Below are positions 34,467 to 57,564 of a stretch of 64,000 nucleotides of DNA, piece by piece. The stretch is from a phage, in the sequence record OZ413487.1; one strand, 5' to 3'. Numbering within the stretch: the first letter of the stretch is position 1; the number at the start of each line of letters is the position of its first letter. The position numbers and the translations under genes are program-made. The notes beneath the pieces are model-generated. The model was not told where the DNA came from. It saw only the letters and a program-made list of their open reading frames with translations, and did no database searches.

Positions 34467-36890
34467 ATGAGCATGTGGTCGTTCGACTTTGAGTCATCCG
34501 GTTTGCTGGAAGACCCAGATCTTTATTATCACTGCGGCCTGTTTAAAGAGCTGAATAAGAACCGTTTTATGCTGTTCCTTCCTCTAAATGACCGCACACA
34601 CTACTCCGAGGAGGATATAGAAAAGGCTAAGAACTTCATTCTGGCAAAGAAAACTCTTTATAAAGATTTTGAAGTTCGCATAGCAGATTTTTCAGAGTTG
34701 GAAGGTTGGCTTACAGGAAATTCTGACTGGTCACCAACAGCTTTGAACTGCCATAACTGCTACAGTTATGACTTTATGCTGATGGAAAGATTATCTGGTA
34801 TTCATTTTGATATGTTCCGTGATCCTAAATGTATGGGGACTATCAACGATCACCAGGTTAACCTGTTTGATACGTTGGCGATGAGCCGAATCTTGTGGCC
34901 TGATCGCCCTTTACCAAAAGGTTGTCCGGACTCTGTATTCAACCCGGTTACTAAGAAAATGCAGCCTGTTGGTCCTCACGGCCTTATGGCATGGGGCTAC
35001 GCCCTTGGTAACCAGAAAGTTCAAATTGATGACTGGCGCGATCTTCCGTTGTGGAAGTATGTGGATCGTGTATTCGAGGACGTTATCATCCAGGAGCTGC
35101 TCTGGAAAGAGCTGGTAGCGGAATCAAAAGGTGTATTCTACGGCAAATCTGACATGCAGAACTTTATGTACGATCCGGCCAAAGAGAAGCCGAAAGGGTT
35201 CAAGAAGATCACCTGGAAGAACGCATTACGTCGAGGCATGCTGCAGCACTTCCTGATGGAGCTGCAGGCCCGTCAGGGTGTATACTTCGACATAGATGGA
35301 GCTATTGCTTTACGTGACCGTTGCGATGCGTGGATGAAAGAAATCGCTGATCGTGTTGAACCACAACTACCTTTAAAAGAGCTGTCAATGTCTCAGCGGC
35401 CCAAGTTCCCTGAAAAGCCGTTTAACCAAGACGGGACAATCTCTAATAATGGTTGGAAATGGTTAAAAGATAAGCTTGGCTATCCTGTAGACATGAGTGC
35501 TTTAGAGTTCAAAGCCCTGCCTAAGCGAGCATTTACCTCTACAGGAGATGTCAGCAAGATGGGGATAAAATGGTGTGAAGAGATGGGCTGCAAAGACCCC
35601 GATAAGATGGCTGATTTCTTGAGAGGCTATATTAAGGGCACCTCCACACCACAACCCTTACCTAAAGAGCTGATGGATCAGGCAATAAGTGATCTGCAGC
35701 AGAAGCGAATGCCTGACTGCAAGATACCTATGAAAATCAGCAATCAGGACGACATCAAGCGATACCTAATCAGTGCTGGTTGGCTCCCAACAATGTGGAG
35801 AACTAAAGATGTAACTAAAGACAGCAAGAAGAAAGCTTTACCTGATGCAGATGTTGATGCACGAGTATATGCATATATGGACGAGCTTTTGGAGTCAGAG
35901 TATTGTGACCTAATTATCAACTTCTGGAACAAAACTGATGCTAAGTTCCAGACAACCGTGCACAAGTTCCGAAGCTTTCCTAACTCCGAAAGGATTAAAA
36001 AGGAAGTATTCGGGAAAATACGTAGAAAAGCCAGGGCACTTATTACTTCTCCGCAACTGAAAGATACGTTTGGACACCTATGCCCAAATCTTGAAAAATT
36101 GAACGGAGAGATGGCTAAAGATATCGTCTTGTGGTTATCATTGCGAAACCGCAGATCGGTCCTTGATCCAATCAAGGAGGATAAGGTTGATACTGGTCTT
36201 CTTAATCACCCACGTTTGAAGATTGACCATAAGCTTCCTGCTAAAAGCTCTGGATTAACAAACACTTCCAGACAGAAACACAGTATTTGTGCAAACATGC
36301 CTAAACCATCTCCTAAAGTAGTTATGGGTAAAGAGATGCGTAGTCTGTGGGGTGTTCCTCCAGGATACTTTGAGATCGGTATTGACGGGTCCAACTTAGA
36401 GCAGCTCATCGGGGCTTGGGGTGCCTTTGAGTTCGACAACGGCTTGTATTATGATGTTGTAAGTAACGGAGACGCACACCAAAACAATGCTGAGGCATAT
36501 ACAAAAGTGGCAGGCAGAGAGGTGTCCCGTAACGACGGTAAACCTATCACGTATGGGGTTATGTACGGGGCACAAAAAGATAAAGTTGCAGATATGCTGG
36601 ACATCTCCCCAGAGTTGGGACAAAGGGTAATCGATGCACTCTGGGATGCCAACCCAGGTCTTAAGGGGCGCAAAGAGGATCTGGAGAAATTCTGGGAAGC
36701 AACAGGTAAGAAGTTTATCTACTCTTTTGATGGTCATGCTATCTGGACCCGATCTAAACACTCTTTACTTAATGCATACCAACAAAATGGCGGTGCATCG
36801 TTGTGTGACTTAGTTGGAATACTCATGCACCACCAGATGGTGAAGCGTGGGTGGTACGATGAAGGTGTTCGTCGTATTATTTATTACCAT
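34467..36890 (+). CDS. family A DNA polymerase (T7 gp5-like), exon 1 (ends at the His codon of the HDE motif)
   Basis: 3'-5' exo motifs (FDFESSGL, YSYDFM), HGLMAWGYALG (compare T7 HALEAWGYRLG), polymerase motif A (GIDGSNLEQL), motif B (RNDGKPITYGVMYG) and QQNGGASLCDL. The reading frame hits a stop two codons after ...IIYYH. Confidence 0.8.
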
Positions 36891-37166
36891 AAATAACATT
36901 GTGGCTTCATAGAGTAATCTATGTCGAATAACCTCTTTAACTGCGGGAAGCCTAAACCTTATGGCAAGGTAATCCGCAACGAAGCGCTCAAAAGAGCGAA
37001 CGCTCAGAGGCCATTCCGAAAGGAAGTAGACCAGCAAGTGCGGTCGAAATGGGAGGATTCCTGTGGTTGCTTATCATAGGAATATGAGATGGTCCGATCC
37101 TACGTGAAAACGTATGGCTATGCACGTAATGGTGCGGGGTAGCTTAACGACCTACCTGAACTATTG
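36891..37166 (+). other. intervening sequence in the DNA polymerase gene; candidate group I self-splicing intron
   Basis: 276 nt with no credible ORF. The 5' exon ends in U (CAU), the insert ends in G (...CUAUUG), and a GUGG near its 5' end can pair with exon CCAU to form P1 with a U-G wobble. Joining the flanks restores IIYYH-DEYQLQV. Confidence 0.6.
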
Positions 37167-45528: not shown

Positions 45529-45718
45529 GCTTAAATCCGCATGGAGCATTGCTGTGGGTGATGAGATCCGTATCCCCGGTGGGAAGACCATTATGAAGAT
45601 ATCTCGTATTGAGTACGAAGGTGACCGTGTATTCCACATCTTCGCAGAAGATGGTCGAGAAATTTATATACAGGCAGGTTCTCACATTTATATCCGTAAG
45701 AAAGGGGACGACAAATGA
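45512..45718 (+). CDS. hypothetical protein
   Basis: 68-aa ORF. Confidence 0.45.
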   Translation: MVLMFKLKSAWSIAVGDEIRIPGGKTIMKISRIEYEGDRVFHIFAEDGREIYIQAGSHIYIRKKGDDK

Positions 45719-46044
45719 CAGAAATCATCATTTCAACTGCAGGGTATGTGTTCCTGACAATCATTGCACTGACTATTTTGGTGACAGTGTATGGGTTTGT
45801 TATCCTTCCTATCCTTGAGACATTTAGTTTGTGTCGGTGTTGGAGAAAAGCTTACGGTCCACAACCATGGAAGGACTGGCCCCACCTGGTGCGCTTAGCG
45901 TTCTCTTATGCTTACGATCACTCCAGTAGTGCATGCATAACCGGATACCACGCCCACAACTGGAGCTGGGAAGGGTTGAGGAAATGGAATGTTACAAAGA
46001 CCATACCTCTGCGCATGTACAAACCTAAAAACAAAGACAACTGA
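45715..46044 (+). CDS. small membrane protein
   Basis: N-terminal transmembrane segment (YVFLTIIALTILVTVYGFVILPIL); RBS AAGGGGA. Confidence 0.55.
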   Translation: MTEIIISTAGYVFLTIIALTILVTVYGFVILPILETFSLCRCWRKAYGPQPWKDWPHLVRLAFSYAYDHSSSACITGYHAHNWSWEGLRKWNVTKTIPLRMYKPKNKDN

Positions 46045-46086
46045 TACTTGAAAATTCTTGGCATATCAAGTATAAGGGGGATTTCT

Positions 46087-46533
46087 AAAATGGATTTCCT
46101 CCTTTTGATATTTCACCGGGCCGGATATTTTAAAATTCTTAGAAAATCAGAAAATGGATCGAAAACTAAAATGGATTTTTCAGAGTAGGCGCGACAAGCT
46201 GAATAACTCATCCTATCGTTTGCACCATATTCCAGGCCACCATTATAGATTTCCCACACATGCTAACCTCCCTCTACTAGAACTTCCTCCACTTACCCTT
46301 GACCTTCTATGGTAACAATCTAACCGCTATCTTGAAGTTGCTGTGCAGCTTTCCAGGTACTCGATCTACTTTTCATTTCAGGGCTTGGATTTTCTGAAAA
46401 TTTTTCTCGATAAATTTCTCAGTACTCGATCTGTTTTTCGTTTTCTGAATCGGATTTTCTGGAAATCGTTCCGGCTCTCGACCTGAAATTTTTGGGGACG
46501 AAATCGATTTTTCGTTTTCAGAAATGGATTTTT
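46087..46533. repeat. iteron-like array of short direct and inverted repeats (AAAATGGATTTT / GGATTTTCTGAAA, TACTCGATCT)
   Basis: Seven or more copies of the core and its complement within about 450 bp of ORF-free DNA. Confidence 0.6.
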
Positions 46534-46680
46534 AAAATTTCTATATGGGAATATTTTATGGGATACTGTTTTATAGGAAATTGTTACGGAGGGTAATTAG
46601 CGTGCTAATTAAATTTATTAAATGCGAGGAGTTCTCATTTAGAATTTTGAATGATAATCATTCTCGTTTGCAGAATAACG

Positions 46681-46703
46681 GGCAGGCCCGGTGATTGTCT
46701 CCC
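46681..46703 (+). repeat. 23-bp motif GGCAGGCCCGGTGATTGTCTCCC (left copy; a variant lies at 46821-46837)
   Basis: Exact reverse-complement copy at 54121-54143; embedded in a roughly 60-bp imperfect direct repeat (46640-46705 versus 46780-46840). Confidence 0.6.
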
Positions 46704-47060
46704 GGCCCCTACTGCCCCGGCTTGTTATTATAGTATCACACAGGACAAAGAAAGCAAGGATTTTTTGCATAAATTTTTAAATGATAATGATAACCGTTCT
46801 CATTTTATGCAGCGCCCATCCCCGGTGGTTGTCTCCCCCGTCACCGGTGCCTGCCGTCCTTTCGATAGGTATATCGTGCCACCTGGCGGGGCCGCTGTCA
46901 ACACTTTTCAAAAAATTTTTCTAACCTGATGCGCTAACCGCTGCAACCTGGCGGGGTCAGCCTGGCAGGACCTAACTGACCGGGTAGGAGAGAATGAAGG
47001 CTTGTAAACCTGGTGGGCCTATGCTACAGGATAGGTAACAATTGAAGAGGAGGTACAAAA

Positions 47061-47228
47061 ATGAAAGGTAATATGATCCCCCTAGAAAATGTAGCTATTA
47101 ATGACGCTGAGGCTATCGCCCTGGTTGAAAAGGCTATGGCGGGAGCGTTGGAACATAAAGAAGAGTACGAAAAATGGTGGTTAACCTGGCGGGGGCGGCA
47201 GGTGGATTCTATCATAAAAATAATTTAA
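47061..47228 (+). CDS. small protein (55 aa, below the ORF-track threshold)
   Basis: Strong RBS GAAGAGGAGG 7 nt before the ATG. Hand translation MKGNMIPLENVAINDAEAIALVEKAMAGALEHKEEYEKWWLTWRGRQVDSIIKII. Confidence 0.5.
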   Translation: MKGNMIPLENVAINDAEAIALVEKAMAGALEHKEEYEKWWLTWRGRQVDSIIKII

Positions 47229-47236
47229 AATAGTCG

Positions 47237-47265
47237 TTGACAACAAGGTTAATCATGGTATTATT
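47237..47265 (+). promoter_or_regulatory. sigma70-type promoter (TTGACA-N17-ATTATT)
   Basis: -35 hexamer in the same AATAGTCGTTGACAA context seen at 38641. Confidence 0.5.
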
Positions 47266-47315
47266 ACCCTACAAGGTGAACAACACCGCACTAACCAGTA
47301 AAGAGGATAAATTTA

Positions 47316-47512
47316 TGAACGCATACGGGATCAAAGTACGTCGCAACACTCGCCAGGTGGTCACCAATCAAGTGATTTGCCGGGTGGATGTAACCATCAA
47401 CAACGGGCAAGGCCTTTATAAATTTCGTCGCGGTCATAGCTATACCCTGCAACAGCTTAATCGTTGCGCCCTGACAAAAGGTCAGATCAACCATTGGTTT
47501 AATAAAAAATAA
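47316..47512 (+). CDS. small basic protein
   Basis: ATG after AAAGAGGATAAA; the N-terminal extension in the track ORF (47237) overlaps the promoter. Confidence 0.5.
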
Positions 47513-53706: not shown

Positions 53707-54120
53707 AAGAGTTGTCGAGGGGGAGGCCCCCAATCGTTGACCAGATAGATAGGAGTTAAAATCATGGCTATTGTTACCGCTGGCTATCTTCAAAGATGCG
53801 GAAGCAAAACAACGCCGGATCTCAATACATGAGATCATCAACCTTAACGCTGGAGGCACACCATACCGCCCAGGACCTGGCCGTGAGATGGACAATACGC
53901 TAGCGATCCTGAAGATACGCCGTAAACGGTCCTCCCTTACTCTGGACTCATTACACACAATGCAGCCTCCGTTCCAGGTGACCGGGAAACGGATCGCCAG
54001 GTCCTGGACAAAGGCCAATGATCGGACCGTATAAATAAAAGTGTTTTGGTACTGATTTTGGGGTTGACTTGTTCGGCCCCTTTTGCTATTCTTATTAAAC
54101 GGGCGGCACTTGGGAACAGG

Positions 54121-54143
54121 GGGAGACAATCACCGGGCCTGCC
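54121..54143 (-). repeat. 23-bp motif, inverted copy of 46681-46703
   Basis: Exact reverse complement (GGGAGACAATCACCGGGCCTGCC). Confidence 0.6.
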
Positions 54144-54168
54144 TGTCATATAAGAACTATAAAAACCG

Positions 54169-54251: not shown

Positions 54252-54524
54252 ATGTCAAACTGGATTAATCAAGAAGTCGAATCACGTTTTAATGCTATTT
54301 GGGATCTCATCGAAAAAGAAGACGGCACATCAAGCCCCTACCTCAACAATTTGGAATTCCATTTTGTGGAAGCGATGAACGCAGAACATGATCACGAAGG
54401 TGGCGCGGATGAGTTCGCTAAAGGTTATGGCTTTAACAATGCCAACGAAATGATCGAGGCGGTAGTACTCCAGGCTGAGGAAGATTATCAACTAAAAACG
54501 CTTGAATTCTGCCGCCGCAAGTAA
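54252..54524 (+). CDS. hypothetical acidic protein
   Basis: 90-aa ORF with RBS AGAGAGGAAAACAC. Confidence 0.55.
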   Translation: MSNWINQEVESRFNAIWDLIEKEDGTSSPYLNNLEFHFVEAMNAEHDHEGGADEFAKGYGFNNANEMIEAVVLQAEEDYQLKTLEFCRRK

Positions 54525-54894: not shown

Positions 54895-55772
54895 CTCCTC
54901 TTTTCCTACCACAAATGGCCCCGCCTGGCAAATGGAATAATCAACAAGCCAGCAATTAACCCCACTGTACAAACATACATATAAAATAACTATTGCATAA
55001 TTTTTCATTGTGTGGTAGCAGTGCCATTTTTACACGTTTTTCCTTCCAAAATTGCACGTAATGCAGCATTTGCACAAAATTTAACCTGATGCATATCTTC
55101 AATAGCTTGTCAACAACTAAAAATCTTTATAAGTCATACACTTACATAACTACAAAAACGTTTTCTACGTGAAAAATCGAGTATAACTATAGCCGCCAGA
55201 TCTCAGAATTTACGTACGCTCGCCATTCTATAGCCTGCTAAGCATTTATTCCAACCATAGAATAACGGAATAGTCAATACCTGCATAAAATAATTATTCG
55301 TGTAAACTGCATAACATAAATCGGCCCAGGTGTCAACATTTTTCGTAAACAGTCTGGAATTGTCACGTTAGGTTACCATAAGCAGAGAAATCTTTAGTCG
55401 TCTAATGTTTACTGTACATTACTATACTGACTGGAATCATTAGATGACTAAGAGAAAGATAAGAAATAATTAATAATGTAATTATTTTACCTGTAACAAT
55501 AAGGCAACTATGCAAACGAATGGCATGGCGCGACGGAGTCGCGACATAATATAAAAGCAGTAACCATCACCCCCGTGATAGTTTGTCTGCAAACTATTAA
55601 TCAGATCATAGTTGCCTTGTATTTAGTTAATCATGACATGACAAGCAAGGCAACTATAGATCTGCTAATAGTTGCCCTGCTTTTATATTATGTCATGCTA
55701 ATTATAATCAGTGCGATTATTGTCATGTATAATTATTGTCATGCAAACGAATGGCATGGCTGATTATCGGTG

Positions 55773-55859
55773 TGTAAACAGTCAATCATGTAAATGGTTA
55801 GCATGTGAACAATCAGGAATGTAAACAATCCAGTGTGTAAACTAATAGGTGTGTAAAAG
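55773..55859. repeat. iteron array: six copies of (G/A)TGT(A/G)AA(C/T) at roughly 16-bp spacing
   Basis: GTGTAAACA, ATGTAAATG, ATGTGAACA, ATGTAAACA, GTGTAAACT, GTGTAAAAG. Confidence 0.6.
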
Positions 55860-56135
55860 TGTCATGTTGTGTCAGTTAGGTCACATTATGTCAGACAAGT
55901 TTTTCTCCTCTTTGTCAAGTGCTGCATGAAAAATTTACAAGCTTGTATGGTAGCATTTTTGCGGCCCTGTTTACATTCAGTAATGTATGTATAATCCTTG
56001 TTGTGTGGGCGTTTAGACGTCTAGACGGTTGGAAGTCCACAGGTCAATATCTAATCTATCGGCTGCTAACTATATCCCACACAAATAGTAAGAAATATGA
56101 TTGTTATATGCGTAAACTGTAACTCATGTTATCAA

Positions 56136-56505
56136 TCCCTGTATGGATCGCCAGTGGTGCGCATAATAGGTATTATGTTAAATTGCCCGTAATGATAACA
56201 GTTCTCACAATGATAGGTATTCTCATTCATCCACACAAAATAGGTTGCAAATGTTGTGCCACTGTGTGAACGGCCTGGCCTATTAATTTCTCTCACTGCC
56301 TCGATATTTGAGAATTGTTATCCCTGTATGGATCGCCAGTGGTGCGCATAATAGGTATTATGTTAAATTGCCCGTAATGATAACAGTTCTCACAATGATA
56401 GGTATTCTCATTCATCCACACAAAATAGGTTGCAAATGTTGTGCCACTGTGTGAACGGCCTGGCCTATTAATTTCTCTCACTGCCTCGATATTTGAGAAT
56501 TGTTA
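56136..56505. repeat. perfect tandem direct repeat, 2 x 185 bp
   Basis: Copy 1 (56136-56320) and copy 2 (56321-56505) appear identical base for base when read by eye. Confidence 0.8.
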
Positions 56506-57564
56506 TAAGAATGAGAAGTATTCCCATTCCGTCCGCCTGGCAGCACTCCTGTAGGTCCTGCAAGGACTCTAGCTGAAAGCTAGACCCTTCGGGCCTCCCT
56601 GTAGGTCAGGTCAAAATCGTGGTAGAATTGGGCCTGTTCAGATATTTCTGGCTGACTCTTCAGGTCTGTGTGGGAAAAGCCAACCTCTCCGGCGGGGCAG
56701 GGGGTCATGACGGGAAAATTGCAGGTCAATTAAAAAATTTACGTGGTGTATGAAGCGCTCTTCAGGTAAGGCATGTATTATGGGATGAAACCCTCTTCAG
56801 GCAATGATATTTGTGGGTGTGATATTTGCTGGAAAGCCAGATATGACGGGACTCCCGGCGGGGATGGGGTAGTACAGACAGGGAAAATATGAGAATGTAG
56901 TTGGGGAAATTGATCAGACAGGTAGAGTATGGAATATGTTACAAGTATGTTAAATATGGAGGTTGAATATCTGTAGGATTTGTGTGTAAAATCAAAGACT
57001 TAAGGGGTGTTGTGGTATTTTCTATAAATAATTCAAGTTTAATAGGCAATATTTGTCTCTATCCGCTTTGTGTGGTAAACAGATTCAGATTAGATTGGTT
57101 TACAAGTGTATACATAATATACAAATTAAAGATACAAGAAACCCCCCTCCCCCTTCGGCTACCATTCACCTTTTCCTCTGACTGGTACTTAAACACTTAT
57201 TCAGACTCTTCAGGTTATCACCCATATATCATATGGCAGTGACTGGTGTCCTCCGGCCCCTCTTTCGTCACCCGTCCGCTTCGCCATGCTAATGCCATAG
57301 CCAATGGTTCGGTTGTTCACTCTGTTCACTCAGGTGTATCTCCATACCCCTTCAAACCGAAGAGAACAGAAAACCCGAATTACTCGGTAAAAGAAAAGAG
57401 AAGAACTTAATTTTATCAGGATAGGCAAGAATGTCAAGGCATGACTGCTCACTAAACAAGCAAACAGTCATGTGTGGAAGGTAAGTGATTGTGGTGGTGG
57501 GAAATTTAGTTGAAAGATGTGTTATAGGTGCTCCCAGCACTTTAGCCGGGTAGCTAATTGTGTG

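Follow-up and report, generated by a model that had tools for sequence, protein, structure and literature searches.

Phages of the rV5-like and phi92-like groups are widely used candidates for therapy and biocontrol, and their regulation is almost unknown. We know of no two-step DNA entry in rV5-like phages. Described phage systems with which a gene-free, promoter-bearing region may be compared include the T7 primary origin (promoters and an AT-rich region), T4 oriF and oriG, and the transcriptional activation of lambda ori. In T5, the iss region lies at 7.9% of the genome and is an untranslated stretch of about 1.2 kb whose repeats and palindromes show stronger conservation than the ORFs next to it (bioRxiv 10.1101/866236). 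Fur operators of enterobacteria are described by a 19-mer consensus, GATAATGATAATCATTATC, and a 7-1-7 core, TGATAATnATTATCA (PMC11353095). For rV5 itself, the genome paper annotated ORFs across the locus considered here and did not find an origin, and its skew analysis shows no change at this locus (PMC3606486).

We analysed positions 46045-47060 of a 64,000-nucleotide stretch of DNA (OZ413487.1, the window) from a Vequintavirus, an rV5-like virulent myovirus of E. coli. It is a genuine control region, which many related phages have kept. The reading that we favour, with slightly less than even confidence, is that host RNA polymerase transcribes it leftward as a non-coding unit, with Fur-type operators as the gate.

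Coding status and conservation

The initial annotation, made from the letters of the sequence, had described about 1 kb without credible ORFs, and this was borne out: 46045-47060 holds just ORFs of 32-92 aa, none credible, and the small ORFs annotated there have no Pfam match. Several GenBank records do carry 32-92-aa "hypothetical proteins" here, and it could be argued that the region is protein-coding (rV5 ORF199, ORF198 and similar) with incidental repeats. We regard this as extremely improbable. The records conflict, annotating from zero to six differing proteins across the region. The 92-aa ORF (rV5 ORF198) starts inside a palindrome, lacks a Shine-Dalgarno sequence and has a homopolymer-length indel near its 3' end in an alignment of seven Vequintaviruses, while homologous sequence in other genera carries 1-2-nt indels and no shared reading frame. 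In addition, hexamers, helices and palindromes account for the conservation pattern. At minimum, several of the "hypothetical proteins" entered in more than 100 GenBank records are probably spurious.

Nucleotide conservation of the locus exceeds that of any neighbouring gene. Of the 1-kb query, only about 46609-46766 matches phages of other genera (70-88% identity), including Seunavirus, Certrevirus, Mydovirus, Henunavirus and Phapecoctavirus, where it is mostly unannotated. This core of palindromic box plus leader is the only part conserved at the nucleotide level across six genera in two subfamilies. The repeats, whose presence in related phages had been proposed as a test, were found together with the locus in relatives of several genera. 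Five of 16 pattern matches in viral contigs (L024, L030, L031, L035 and L036) were discarded as chance. Neither E. coli genomes nor 185,579 bacterial and archaeal species genomes contain a match to the core, and a copy of host sequence or of a host small RNA was therefore rejected.

Predicted minus-strand promoters and leader hairpin

An imperfect direct repeat of about 60 bp had been reported, and we recovered it as 46637-46669 versus 46773-46805 (73%) and 46687-46703 versus 46821-46837 (94%), 134-136 nt apart. It is a duplicated cassette on the minus strand, made up of a predicted sigma70 promoter, a leader of about 50 nt that can form a hairpin, and a Fur-box-type palindrome. There is also a third copy of the cassette near 54.1 kb.

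46730..46757, minus strand: predicted sigma70 promoter of cassette 1, TTGCTT (46757-46752), 16-nt spacer, TG-extended TACTAT (46735-46730)
46675..46728, minus strand: hairpin element copy 1 (covariance model R1, 67 bits; same fold in 15 lineages)
46873..46901, minus strand: predicted sigma70 promoter of cassette 2, TTGACA (46901-46896), 17-nt spacer, CACGAT
46809..46857, minus strand: hairpin element copy 2, divergent, CCGGUG ACGGGGGAGACAAC CACCGG (R1 18.5 bits, E = 0.84)
54064-54149, plus strand: third, paralogous cassette, TTGACT-17-TATTCT and then a leader with GGGAGACAATCACCGGGCCTGCC, outside 46045-47060

The predicted promoters would start transcripts at about 46723 (cassette 1) and 46866 (cassette 2). 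Homologues of the cassette 1 promoter match 6.5-10 of 12 consensus positions in the 15 lineages listed; for both cassettes together, the minus-strand promoter is kept with 6.5-11 of 12 positions in the 15-18 lineages listed. The cassette 2 -10 element is CACGAT here and CACAAT in L027 and six other aligned Vequintaviruses. Spacer length is kept at 16-18 nt in each genus, with unrelated spacer sequences. Kept hexamers and spacing around unrelated spacers are the usual signature of a functional promoter, and this pattern of conservation suggests that the predicted promoters fire.

The four ACCTGG(C/T)GGG motifs of the initial annotation are real, at 46881, 46946, 47008 and 47184 rather than at 46881, 46940, 47000 and 47185. 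A search that tolerated one mismatch gave six matches against 1.4 expected, and none of 100 shuffles reaches six. ACCTGGCGGGG had been treated as a free-standing motif, although its first copy is the spacer of the cassette 2 promoter, GCGGCCCCGCCAGGTGG. The fourth motif lies beyond 47060, inside a small ORF of uncertain status.

46946..47018, plus strand: second and third ACCTGG(C/T)GGG motifs (46946-46956 and 47008-47018), from motif search and alignment

The third motif is in the spacer of a weak promoter-like plus-strand site, TTGTAA-17-TACAGG, directly followed by a Shine-Dalgarno sequence and an ATG at 47061. In Mangalyan, 48 nt are missing between the second and third motifs.

In the third cassette, GGGAGACAATCACCGGGCCTGCC is the exact 23-nt reverse complement of 46681-46703 (E = 1e-6). 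This cassette has the opposite genomic orientation to the first two, is codirectional with the genes downstream of 54.1 kb and is kept in rV5 and Gotham, and its distance from promoter to leader equals that of the others (+20 to +22). Since it is inverted in the genome with its promoter at equal distance, the unit appears to be "promoter then leader" in that direction. An invertible segment between the inverted 23-mers was dropped because more than 100 genomes are collinear.

The promoter-sense RNA of copy 1 reads ...GGGCAG UAGGGG CCGG GAGACAAUCA CCGG GCC CUGCCC GUUAU, and the hairpin loop in the cassette leader is GGGAGACAAUCACC. Copy 2 has a core of 17 of 19 nt in common with copy 1 and with the 54-kb copy, which scores 26.5 bits with R1. 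This model finds one full-length, syntenic copy (49-68 bits) in every one of 24 loci from relatives in which this region is present, and also recovers the extra Vequintavirus copies. Folds of single sequences give the same closing and apical helices across 15 lineages. The closing helix is 96% paired, with both-sided changes in two of five pairs, and the majority of the hairpin's G-U pairs are compatible with the promoter-sense (minus) strand only. The covariation was equalled in 19 of 500 shuffles and is partly sensitive to the alignment chosen for the Vequintavirus 5' strand; in that genus, one strand of the outer helix would fall at or before the expected transcription start. RNA from the 694-nt stretch was not more stable than shuffled sequence on either strand (leftward RNA z ~ -1.4), and the folds of "unit 2" were not of unusual stability. 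Support for an RNA hairpin is modest, and the leader may act as RNA. A known RNA family was rejected: no Rfam 15 family reaches its gathering threshold in 45900-47400 (best hits 14-22 bits against thresholds of 38-126), and the sole Rfam pass within the window is a group I intron located elsewhere.

No convincing terminator was found for a leftward RNA, and the intrinsic-terminator scan returned none on the minus strand. The left edge of the region carries one candidate.

46041..46076, no strand assigned: inverted repeat CTGATACTTGA-N14-TCAAGTATAAG, directly after the stop codon of a 109-aa ORF (45715-46044)

This repeat is a weak candidate for a terminator of leftward transcripts, given the U-rich tract that follows it on the minus strand; the scan did not flag it. 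Of the properties of a discrete small RNA, the locus shows a predicted promoter and modest structure support, and no intrinsic terminator on the minus strand.

Fur-type palindromes and the proposed direction of transcription

46650..46668, no strand assigned: box 1, Fur-box-type palindrome AATGATAATCATTCTCGTT, with the 7-1-7 core TGATAATCATTCTCG at 46652-46666
46780..46804, no strand assigned: boxes 2 and 3, overlapping Fur-type palindromes AATGATAATGATAACCGTTCTCATT, from matches to the 19-mer and core consensus
46594..46611, no strand assigned: 18-bp palindrome TAATTAGCGTGCTAATTA, which is TAATTAGCATGCTAATTA in six other aligned Vequintaviruses

The box 1 core matches the consensus at 12 of 14 specified positions, with two mismatches. 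GATAATGATAACCGTTCTC (46783-46801) agrees with the 19-mer at 16 of 19 positions, and the sites at 46782 and 46788 have three mismatches each to the core. As far as sequence can tell, these boxes have the 19-bp dyad or the 15-bp 7-1-7 core of a Fur operator. In most genera the homologue of box 1 reads TGAGAATCATTCTCA; phage 4MG has the perfect TGATAATCATTATCA, and KaOmega has three to four adjacent boxes in a row. Within the window, similar palindromes occur elsewhere only in the terminal-repeat region, so that the boxes are limited to two non-coding regions. AATGAkAATnATTmTCATT with up to three mismatches has six matches against 0.15 expected, every one here or in the terminal-repeat region, and the 7-1-7 consensus has 22 against 5.2 expected, of which these two places account for 11. 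The boxes lie at about +55 to +85 relative to the predicted minus-strand promoters. A box is missing from the 54-kb cassette, and a hairpin from the terminal-repeat boxes, which suggests that the modules may be functionally independent.

The initial annotation had missed the strongest features of the locus: the predicted minus-strand promoters, the Fur-like boxes and the hairpin element, of which a third copy lies at 54.1 kb.

In the leftward reading, the locus would work mostly through the strand that does not carry the genes around it. A tandem pair of sigma70 promoters (about 46.74 and 46.89 kb) would fire leftward, and each transcript would open with a leader of about 50 nt that could fold into a hairpin displaying GGGAGACAA(U/C)CACC. 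About 55-85 nt downstream, the transcript would cross one or two 19-bp palindromes of near-consensus enterobacterial Fur operator type, and a dimeric repressor on these palindromes would gate leftward transcription. Transcription from the inner promoter would then enter an A/T-rich block with three dyad-containing repeats and the AAAATGGAT cluster. As to what this achieves, we infer that the product may be a non-coding leftward RNA, or that the passage of transcription through the repeat block may itself be the function. A literature search found no transcript maps of these phages, and the earlier suggestion to map a possible ncRNA fits this reading.

The repressor would most likely be host Fur-Fe2+, because the site is nearly unchanged in phages of many enterobacterial hosts. 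Most genera have the half-site TGAGAAT against the Fur consensus TGATAAT, and this symmetric departure suggests that a phage-encoded dimeric protein could be the true ligand.

Box 1 fills the spacer of a second candidate promoter, on the plus strand: TTGAAT (46647-46652), 18-nt spacer, CAGAAT (46671-46676). The same repressor could therefore balance both directions. Alternatively, this rightward promoter could be the main one, repressed by Fur and driving a plus-strand small RNA or 5' leader that starts GGGCAGGCCCGGUGAUUGUCUCC and would be antisense to the 54.1-kb leader. A box between -35 and -10 is the classical layout of Fur repression (PMC11353095), the alignments show little or no variation in TTGAAT and GAAT, and 23 nt of perfect complementarity to the 54.1-kb leader would permit pairing in trans. 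Some G-U pairs of the neighbouring "unit 2" in other genera also suit the plus strand. However, all Mydovirus-type sequences have T in place of the key -11 A (CTGAAT), the spacer is 18 nt, the -35 is lost in Phapecoctavirus (GCAAAT) and the duplicate at 46777-46810 has no usable spacing. The hairpin's G-U pairs mostly suit the minus strand, and the 54-kb element sits downstream of a promoter in the other reading direction. We therefore consider a primarily rightward unit unlikely.

An extension of the leftward reading, which we think quite unlikely as a whole, would make the locus an iron-status sensor in virulent rV5-like and phi92-like phages of Enterobacterales. Fur on the operator clusters here and at the terminus would gate the antisense unit, and the hairpin RNA, putatively a new motif with three copies per Vequintavirus genome, would control with the triple repeat a genome-level step. 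Candidates for this step are the firing of an origin, the early-to-middle switch and the end of DNA entry.

Long repeats and the question of a replication origin

46082..46185, plus strand: cluster of AAAATGGAT(T/C) (46087, 46151, 46168) and GATATTT(C/T), from motif search and alignment
46186..46346, no strand assigned: unconstrained spacer, with many substitutions and indels against near-invariant flanking blocks (alignment of seven Vequintaviruses, columns ~156-330)
46347..46545, no strand assigned: three long repeats, spaced 65 and 74 nt, from repeat families and cross-genus copies

Each long repeat contains (T)ACTCGATC and (T/C)GGATTTTC, together with T-tracts, a short dyad within the unit and a junction of A/T-tracts (AAAATTTTT). 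In the window they align over 47-57 nt with 70-74% identity, and the TACTCGATCT/GGATTTTCTG repeats are three units of 62-67 nt. Tandem Repeats Finder did not call them. The same family (62-67 nt; spacing 74-78 and then 63-69) is present in GAP31, KaOmega, Hena1, Mydo and GEC_vB_MG, with exactly three copies in these five genomes from four other genera. The internal dyads and the three copies retained across genera make the repeats resemble protein-binding sites. Type III antitoxin (ToxI) repeats are near-identical tandem repeats of about 36 nt, whereas the repeats here measure 65-74 nt and share 70-74% identity. The pseudo-ToxI ncRNA of phiTE lies in the tRNA region of that phage, a different locus, and homology with it was rejected.

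Three TACTCGATCT-type repeats had been reported, and two are exact (46360, 46425) and one degenerate (CTCTCGACCT, ~46476). The GGATTTTCTG(A/G)AAA sequences (46387, 46452) had been taken for the complement of AAAATGGATTTT, which is wrong, as they are a same-strand GGATTTT core. The claim of multiple AAAATGGAT(T/C) copies holds for their presence, at the three positions of the cluster and as GAAATGGAT at 46521, and the enrichment is marginal: nine matches window-wide against 4.6 expected, with one of 100 shuffles reaching nine. Five of the nine fall within 450 bp, and the four copies at the positions given are irregularly spaced (64, 17 and 353 nt). Positions 46125-46185 are invariant in the seven Vequintaviruses, and analogous GATATTTG / AAATGGTTTTC clusters are present in other genera.

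The initial annotation had expected such iteron clusters to bind a replication initiator or a transcriptional regulator. The regulator half of this is favoured by the Fur-geometry palindromes, the predicted sigma70 promoters and the dyad repeats; the initiator half is not. Iteron arrays have at least three direct repeats of about 17-22 bp in regular phase, and here the repeats are 47-67 nt with a spacing of 65-78 bp. We found no DnaA-box cluster in 46-47.3 kb, and DnaA boxes or an oriC-like layout were accordingly rejected. Cumulative GC skew rises steadily through the locus with no inflection, in agreement with the rV5 skew analysis (PMC3606486). No initiator gene is recognisable beside the region, where the flanking ORFs have no Pfam match. 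An iteron origin is neither supported nor excluded.

The locus could still be a replication origin of another kind, in which an initiator binds to the three repeats and the AAAATGGAT cluster, or these form a bent nucleoprotein complex, and the tandem leftward promoters provide transcriptional activation or an R-loop primer into the A/T-rich block. Exactly three repeats of similar spacing are retained across genera, with A6T5-type bending tracts and GATC sites inside them; two or three tandem predicted promoters are aimed into the repeat block, the leftward transcripts would be G-rich with G-runs, and a T7-like DNA polymerase and a primase-helicase are encoded about 10 kb upstream. The 62-67-nt units, the uninterrupted skew and the missing DnaA boxes and initiator gene weigh against it. 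DnaA-box-like repeats in the other non-coding region, which adjoins the terminal repeat, make that region at least an equal candidate. On balance we consider an origin here doubtful, and such an origin would be compatible with the leftward transcription unit rather than exclusive of it.

Position relative to the genome end

The 459-bp terminal repeat of Gotham, mapped onto the window, places the locus 9.3-10.5 kb from the physical left end (PMC7471380, PMC6563267), or about 7-8% of the genome, whose size is about 137 kb. In this respect the locus resembles T5 iss, being a conserved, untranslated region of repeats at about 8% from the end. By analogy with T5 iss, the locus could be a DNA-entry checkpoint at the inner border of a first-entering segment of about 10 kb of small early genes, and its inward-facing promoters would help to bring in or switch on the remaining genome. 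The genes from the locus to the end are indeed small, with their own strong sigma70 promoters directed endward, and the promoters of the unit are the only inward-pointing ones that we noted. However, the locus lacks the paired DnaA boxes in large inverted repeats within a long terminal repeat that mark T5, the terminal repeat being 459 bp and not about 10 kb (PMC7471380), and in Seunavirus and Mydovirus the homologous locus is immediately upstream of a DNA ligase gene. We consider an entry checkpoint very unlikely.

Some records begin near the locus, but a physical genome end or packaging site was rejected because the 459-bp terminal repeat maps about 9.5 kb rightward, at ~55.9-56.54 kb. Several other candidates were dropped on inspection: a CsrA sponge (GGA motifs not conserved in other genera), a boxA/nut-like site (UCUUUACAA twice in other genera, absent from Vequintavirus), an RfaH ops element (key T variable), and sigma54 and T4 MotA-box promoters (unsuitable spacing or hexamers).

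Significance and comparison with known systems

The control region is conserved from phages of E. coli to those of Erwinia and Proteus, and its components can now be placed on a concrete map: two predicted promoters facing left, Fur-type operators, a fixed triple repeat and a hairpin motif that is new. Should host Fur bind to the locus, this would be a rare case of a strictly lytic phage that has built a metal regulator of its host into its own programme. An origin or an entry checkpoint at the locus would fill a long-standing gap for this phage group.

T5 iss and this locus are both gene-free regions of about 1.2 kb in which repeats and palindromes are nested. Both surpass the flanking ORFs in conservation, lie at a distance of about 7-8% from the end of the genome and border a block of small early-type genes. 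Unlike iss, the rV5-like locus has no paired DnaA boxes or 131-bp inverted repeats and lies outside any long terminal repeat. As in lambda ori, the T7 primary origin and T4 oriF/oriG, direct repeats with bend tracts adjoin predicted promoters that would transcribe into an A/T-rich block, whereas the repeat unit is about three times the length of an iteron, with no initiator gene or compositional switch.

HK022 put, lambda OOP, P22 sar and ColE1 RNA I/RNA II resemble the locus in having a short structured RNA directly after host-type promoters, and the RNAs predicted here would likewise run against the surrounding operon, possibly facing an opposing promoter. The locus has no sequence or Rfam similarity to these RNAs and no terminator delimiting a small RNA; its RNA would overlap no target gene, and the 54-kb copy is a sense-strand 5' leader.

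Finally, in contrast to the Fur operators of Enterobacteria, the phage boxes occur in virulent phages and not in an iron-uptake operon, have TGAGAAT rather than TGATAAT half-sites in most genera, and are found beside the genome terminus as well. They nevertheless share the length and 7-1-7 dyad geometry of those operators and match the core at 11-15 positions, perfectly in 4MG. One lies between -35-like and -10-like hexamers, and they are clustered, with up to three to four adjacent boxes in KaOmega, as at promoters strongly bound by Fur.

Genomic context and conservation

We assigned the window to Vequintavirus, as an rV5-like virulent myovirus of E. coli. Its 45700-47400 segment is 98.6% identical to phage EdH4 and collinear in 112 of the 122 GenBank records matched. 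Genes around the gene-free stretch (46045-47060) lie on the plus strand throughout; in rV5 the T7-like DNA polymerase and primase-helicase genes are about 10 kb upstream of the locus, and numerous small ORFs follow downstream, several of them behind strong sigma70 promoters of their own. The published direct terminal repeat of phage Gotham is 459 bp long (PMC7471380). It maps to the minus strand at about 55.9-56.54 kb, position 1 of Gotham corresponding to window position 56537; this puts the stretch 9.3-10.5 kb inward of the physical left end. This mapping rules out the stretch as the genome terminus, though a few records start near it.

In an alignment of seven Vequintaviruses, 46125-46185 and approximately 46358-46975 were nearly invariant, and 46186-46346 carried many substitutions and indels. 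Sensitive blastn with the whole 1-kb query recovered 244 phage records. Outside Vequintavirus only approximately 46609-46766 matched (70-88% identity), in Seunavirus, Certrevirus, Mydovirus and Henunavirus (Vequintavirinae) and in Phapecoctavirus (Stephanstirmvirinae), genera with hosts such as Salmonella, Klebsiella, Cronobacter, Erwinia, Pectobacterium and Proteus. Records from these genera usually leave the matching segment without annotation, and in every relative examined it sits in a similar gap of 0.7-1 kb devoid of genes. Familiar parts are combined here in an unusual way, in a control region that is widely conserved but undescribed and for which we infer the function. In addition, 16-17 unannotated GenBank entries (MG0656xx) titled 'Campylobacter phage' share about 95% identity with the window over the locus, and from this likeness their host assignment looks doubtful. 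Elsewhere, a group I catalytic intron (36881-37116, plus strand; Rfam RF00028, 64.7 bits, match to the full-length model) presumably interrupts a phage gene.

As the initial annotation had proposed, the region is not credibly coding: its ORFs are short, GenBank records annotate them inconsistently, and none matched in a Pfam search. The rV5 genome paper places ORF199, ORF198 and ORF197 across it and reserves the label 'non-coding' for the other large gap, adjoining the terminal repeat (PMC3606486). ORF198 starts inside a palindrome and has no ribosome-binding site. A neighboring 55-aa ORF (47061-47228, plus strand) has a strong Shine-Dalgarno sequence and is nearly invariant in nucleotide sequence among relatives; 1-nt indels in its C- and A-homopolymers, which could be sequencing errors or reflect non-coding constraint, alter the frame or C-terminus (60 aa in MaxTheCat). 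We give a protein-coding stretch next to no chance.

Predicted leftward promoters and hairpin leader

The approximately 60-bp direct repeat of the initial annotation is real, but its nature had been missed: cross-genus alignments resolve it into two adjacent units, each with a sigma70 promoter at its minus-strand end. The main features are as follows.

46757-46730, minus strand: promoter of cassette 1, TTGCTT-16-(TGA)TACTAT
46901-46873, minus strand: promoter of cassette 2, TTGACA-17-CACGAT
46650, 46780 and 46786: matches to the palindrome AATGAkAATnATTmTCATT (box 1 and overlapping boxes 2 and 3)
54064-54092, plus strand: promoter of a third cassette, TTGACT-17-TATTCT

For the 15-18 lineages listed, a scripted search placed a promoter behind each unit, matching 6.5-11 of 12 consensus positions (for example TTGCAA-17-TATATT, TTGACA-17-CATAAT, TTGACG-17-CATAAT, TTGACA-17-TATACT and TTGATC-16-TATTAT). 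Lineages share the hexamers and the 16-18-nt spacing, with unrelated sequences in the G+C-rich spacers, which is strong comparative evidence that the predicted promoters are real. The cassette 2 -10 is CACAAT in the homologous locus L027 and the six other Vequintaviruses aligned, and its spacer, GCGGCCCCGCCAGGTGG, is what had been listed as the first ACCTGGCGGGG motif.

Seunavirus, Mydovirus and Phapecoctavirus carry a 61-88-aa minus-strand ORF directly right of the two units (loci L010, L011, L014, L017 and L009; for example L010 1817-2008, minus strand). It has its own sigma70-like promoter, giving three tandem leftward promoters there. Their second unit differs (CTACCGGCGATCCACC...GGGGTGGCG, three sequence types), and its first hairpin varies in sequence with pairing preserved (G-C to A-U changes). 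Vequintavirus has neither this ORF nor this unit.

The reverse complement of the conserved core recurs on the plus strand, where an exact 15-mer match at 54122 extends to 23 nt (E = 1e-6). There GGGAGACAATCACCGGGCCTGCC follows the promoter at about +22, the distance also seen in the minus-strand pair of cassettes (about +20 and +26), which defines a repeated unit of promoter then leader, leftward in the gene-free stretch. The 54-kb copy is retained in rV5 and Gotham with promoter TTGCAA-17-TATACT. This cassette (54064-54149) is in sense orientation upstream of a 90-aa ORF (54252-54524), about 2.4 kb from the genome end, and its leader has perfect 23-nt complementarity to any plus-strand transcript crossing 46681-46703.

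Single-sequence folds in the leftward sense gave one common architecture in 15 distinct homologues: a closing helix (e.g. AUAGCGGG/CCCGCUAU), a short CCGG/CCGG helix and a 9-11-nt loop (AGACAAUCA). Aligned across 15 sequences, the closing helix is 96% paired and both sides change in two of five pairs, one being A-U, G-C and G-U in five sequences each, the other A-U in ten, G-C in one, G-U in one and unpaired in three. Since 19 of 500 shuffles reached this level, the support from covariation for the hairpin is modest, and it is in part contingent on the alignment of the 5' strand in Vequintavirus. In that genus the expected start site coincides with or follows the outermost 5' strand, which leaves the inner GGGCA/UGCCC and CCGG/CCGG helices as the only safe ones. 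Searching with a covariance model of this alignment gave one full-length, syntenic match (49-68 bits) in each of the 24 relatives' loci holding the region; in Vequintaviruses the model scored the 54-kb copy at 25-30 bits and the second cassette at 18.5 bits (E about 0.8). The thermodynamic stability of the RNA is unremarkable, Rfam holds nothing similar, and the conserved core had no match in E. coli genomes or in 185,579 species genomes.

Fur-type palindromes and proposed mechanism

The palindrome lies 6-9 nt past each hairpin in the leftward direction. Allowing at most three mismatches, the 64 kb hold six copies where 0.15 would be expected, three of them the gene-free stretch's boxes 1-3 and three in the terminal-repeat stretch. 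Its core (TGATAATCATTCTCG in the window, TGAGAATCATTCTCA in most genera, a perfect TGATAATCATTATCA in phage 4MG) shares its 7-1-7 geometry with the Fur operator, TGATAATnATTATCA (PMC11353095). GATAATGATAACCGTTCTC at 46783 agrees with the Fur 19-mer consensus at 16 of 19 positions, and KaOmega and phiWec186 have three or four such boxes consecutively. Since the site is almost unchanged in phages of two subfamilies with many enterobacterial host genera, we infer that the conserved host protein Fur is a likelier ligand than a fast-evolving phage protein.

The same Fur-box-type palindromes recur in the terminal-repeat stretch, at 56190-56530. One (AATGAGAAGTATTCCCATT, 56510-56528) stops just 9 nt short of the physical end of the genome as mapped (56537), and TAATGATAACAGTTCTCA is identical to 46785-46802 at 17 of 18 positions. 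A perfect 185-bp tandem duplication in the homologue of the Gotham terminal repeat (56135-56506; 2.0 copies, 100% identity) doubles two Fur-like boxes and one GATATTTG motif; the unit is single in Gotham.

The reading we tentatively prefer, with a little less than even confidence, is operator-gated leftward non-coding transcription by host RNA polymerase. The polymerase would initiate from both leftward promoters, the emerging transcript would fold into the conserved hairpin, and elongation would have to cross the Fur-type operators before reaching a block of three long repeats, so that operator occupancy would gate this transcription and might also gate an opposing rightward start. On the plus strand, box 1 occupies the 18-nt spacer between TTGAAT and CAGAAT, a promoter-like arrangement from which a Fur-repressed rightward RNA, antisense to the 54-kb leader, could arise; however, the key A of this -10 is missing from every Mydovirus-type sequence, and we regard such an RNA as quite improbable.

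Repeats and the question of an origin

Operator-gated leftward transcription would run into repeats that the initial annotation took for an iteron cluster binding an initiator or regulator. What it observed was essentially right, and half of its interpretation holds: a regulatory character is likely for the region, whereas an origin is unsupported. The motifs it named are present, although GGATTTTCTGRAAA is not the complement of AAAATGGATTTT (the two share a same-strand GGATTTT core), the four ACCTGGYGGG copies belong at 46881, 46946, 47008 and 47184, and the third of three TACTCGATCT copies is degenerate. A window-wide motif search showed clear enrichment of ACCTGGYGGGG (six matches with at most one mismatch against 1.4 expected, reached by 0 shuffles), whereas AAAATGGAT was marginal as a count (nine against 4.6), five of the nine lying within 450 bp.

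TACTCGATCT, TTTTC, GGATTTTCTG and AAATTTTT are pieces of three long repeats. The same repeat family recurs in five genomes of four other genera (GAP31, KaOmega, Hena1, Mydo and GEC_vB_MG), with exactly three copies per genome, each 62-67 nt long, at a first spacing of 74-78 bp and a second of 63-69 bp. Each copy contains CTCGATC, a short internal dyad varying in sequence from copy to copy, CGTATTTTTTC or GGATTTTC, and GAAAAAATTTTT. Further upstream is a syntenic cluster (AAAATGGAT and GATATTT in the window, AAATGGTTTTC and GATATTTG elsewhere). Fixed copy number, dyads and bend-prone A/T tracts suggest a protein-DNA assembly. We found no DnaA boxes in the stretch, no GC-skew inflection at the locus and no initiator gene in a Pfam search of flanking ORFs; a transcription-activated origin, which would be compatible with operator-gated leftward transcription, thus seems unlikely. 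The gap labelled 'non-coding' in rV5 holds, at 55770-55860, a run of TGTGTAAAC, TGTAAACAA and TGTGAACAA repeats with a DnaA-box-like TTTACACA on the opposite strand, by motif content at least as good an origin candidate.

We consider an entry checkpoint resembling the T5 iss highly improbable. What suggests one is the position of the locus, about 7-8% from the genome end, together with its conserved untranslated repeats, but the DnaA boxes that are the hallmark of the T5 iss are missing here.
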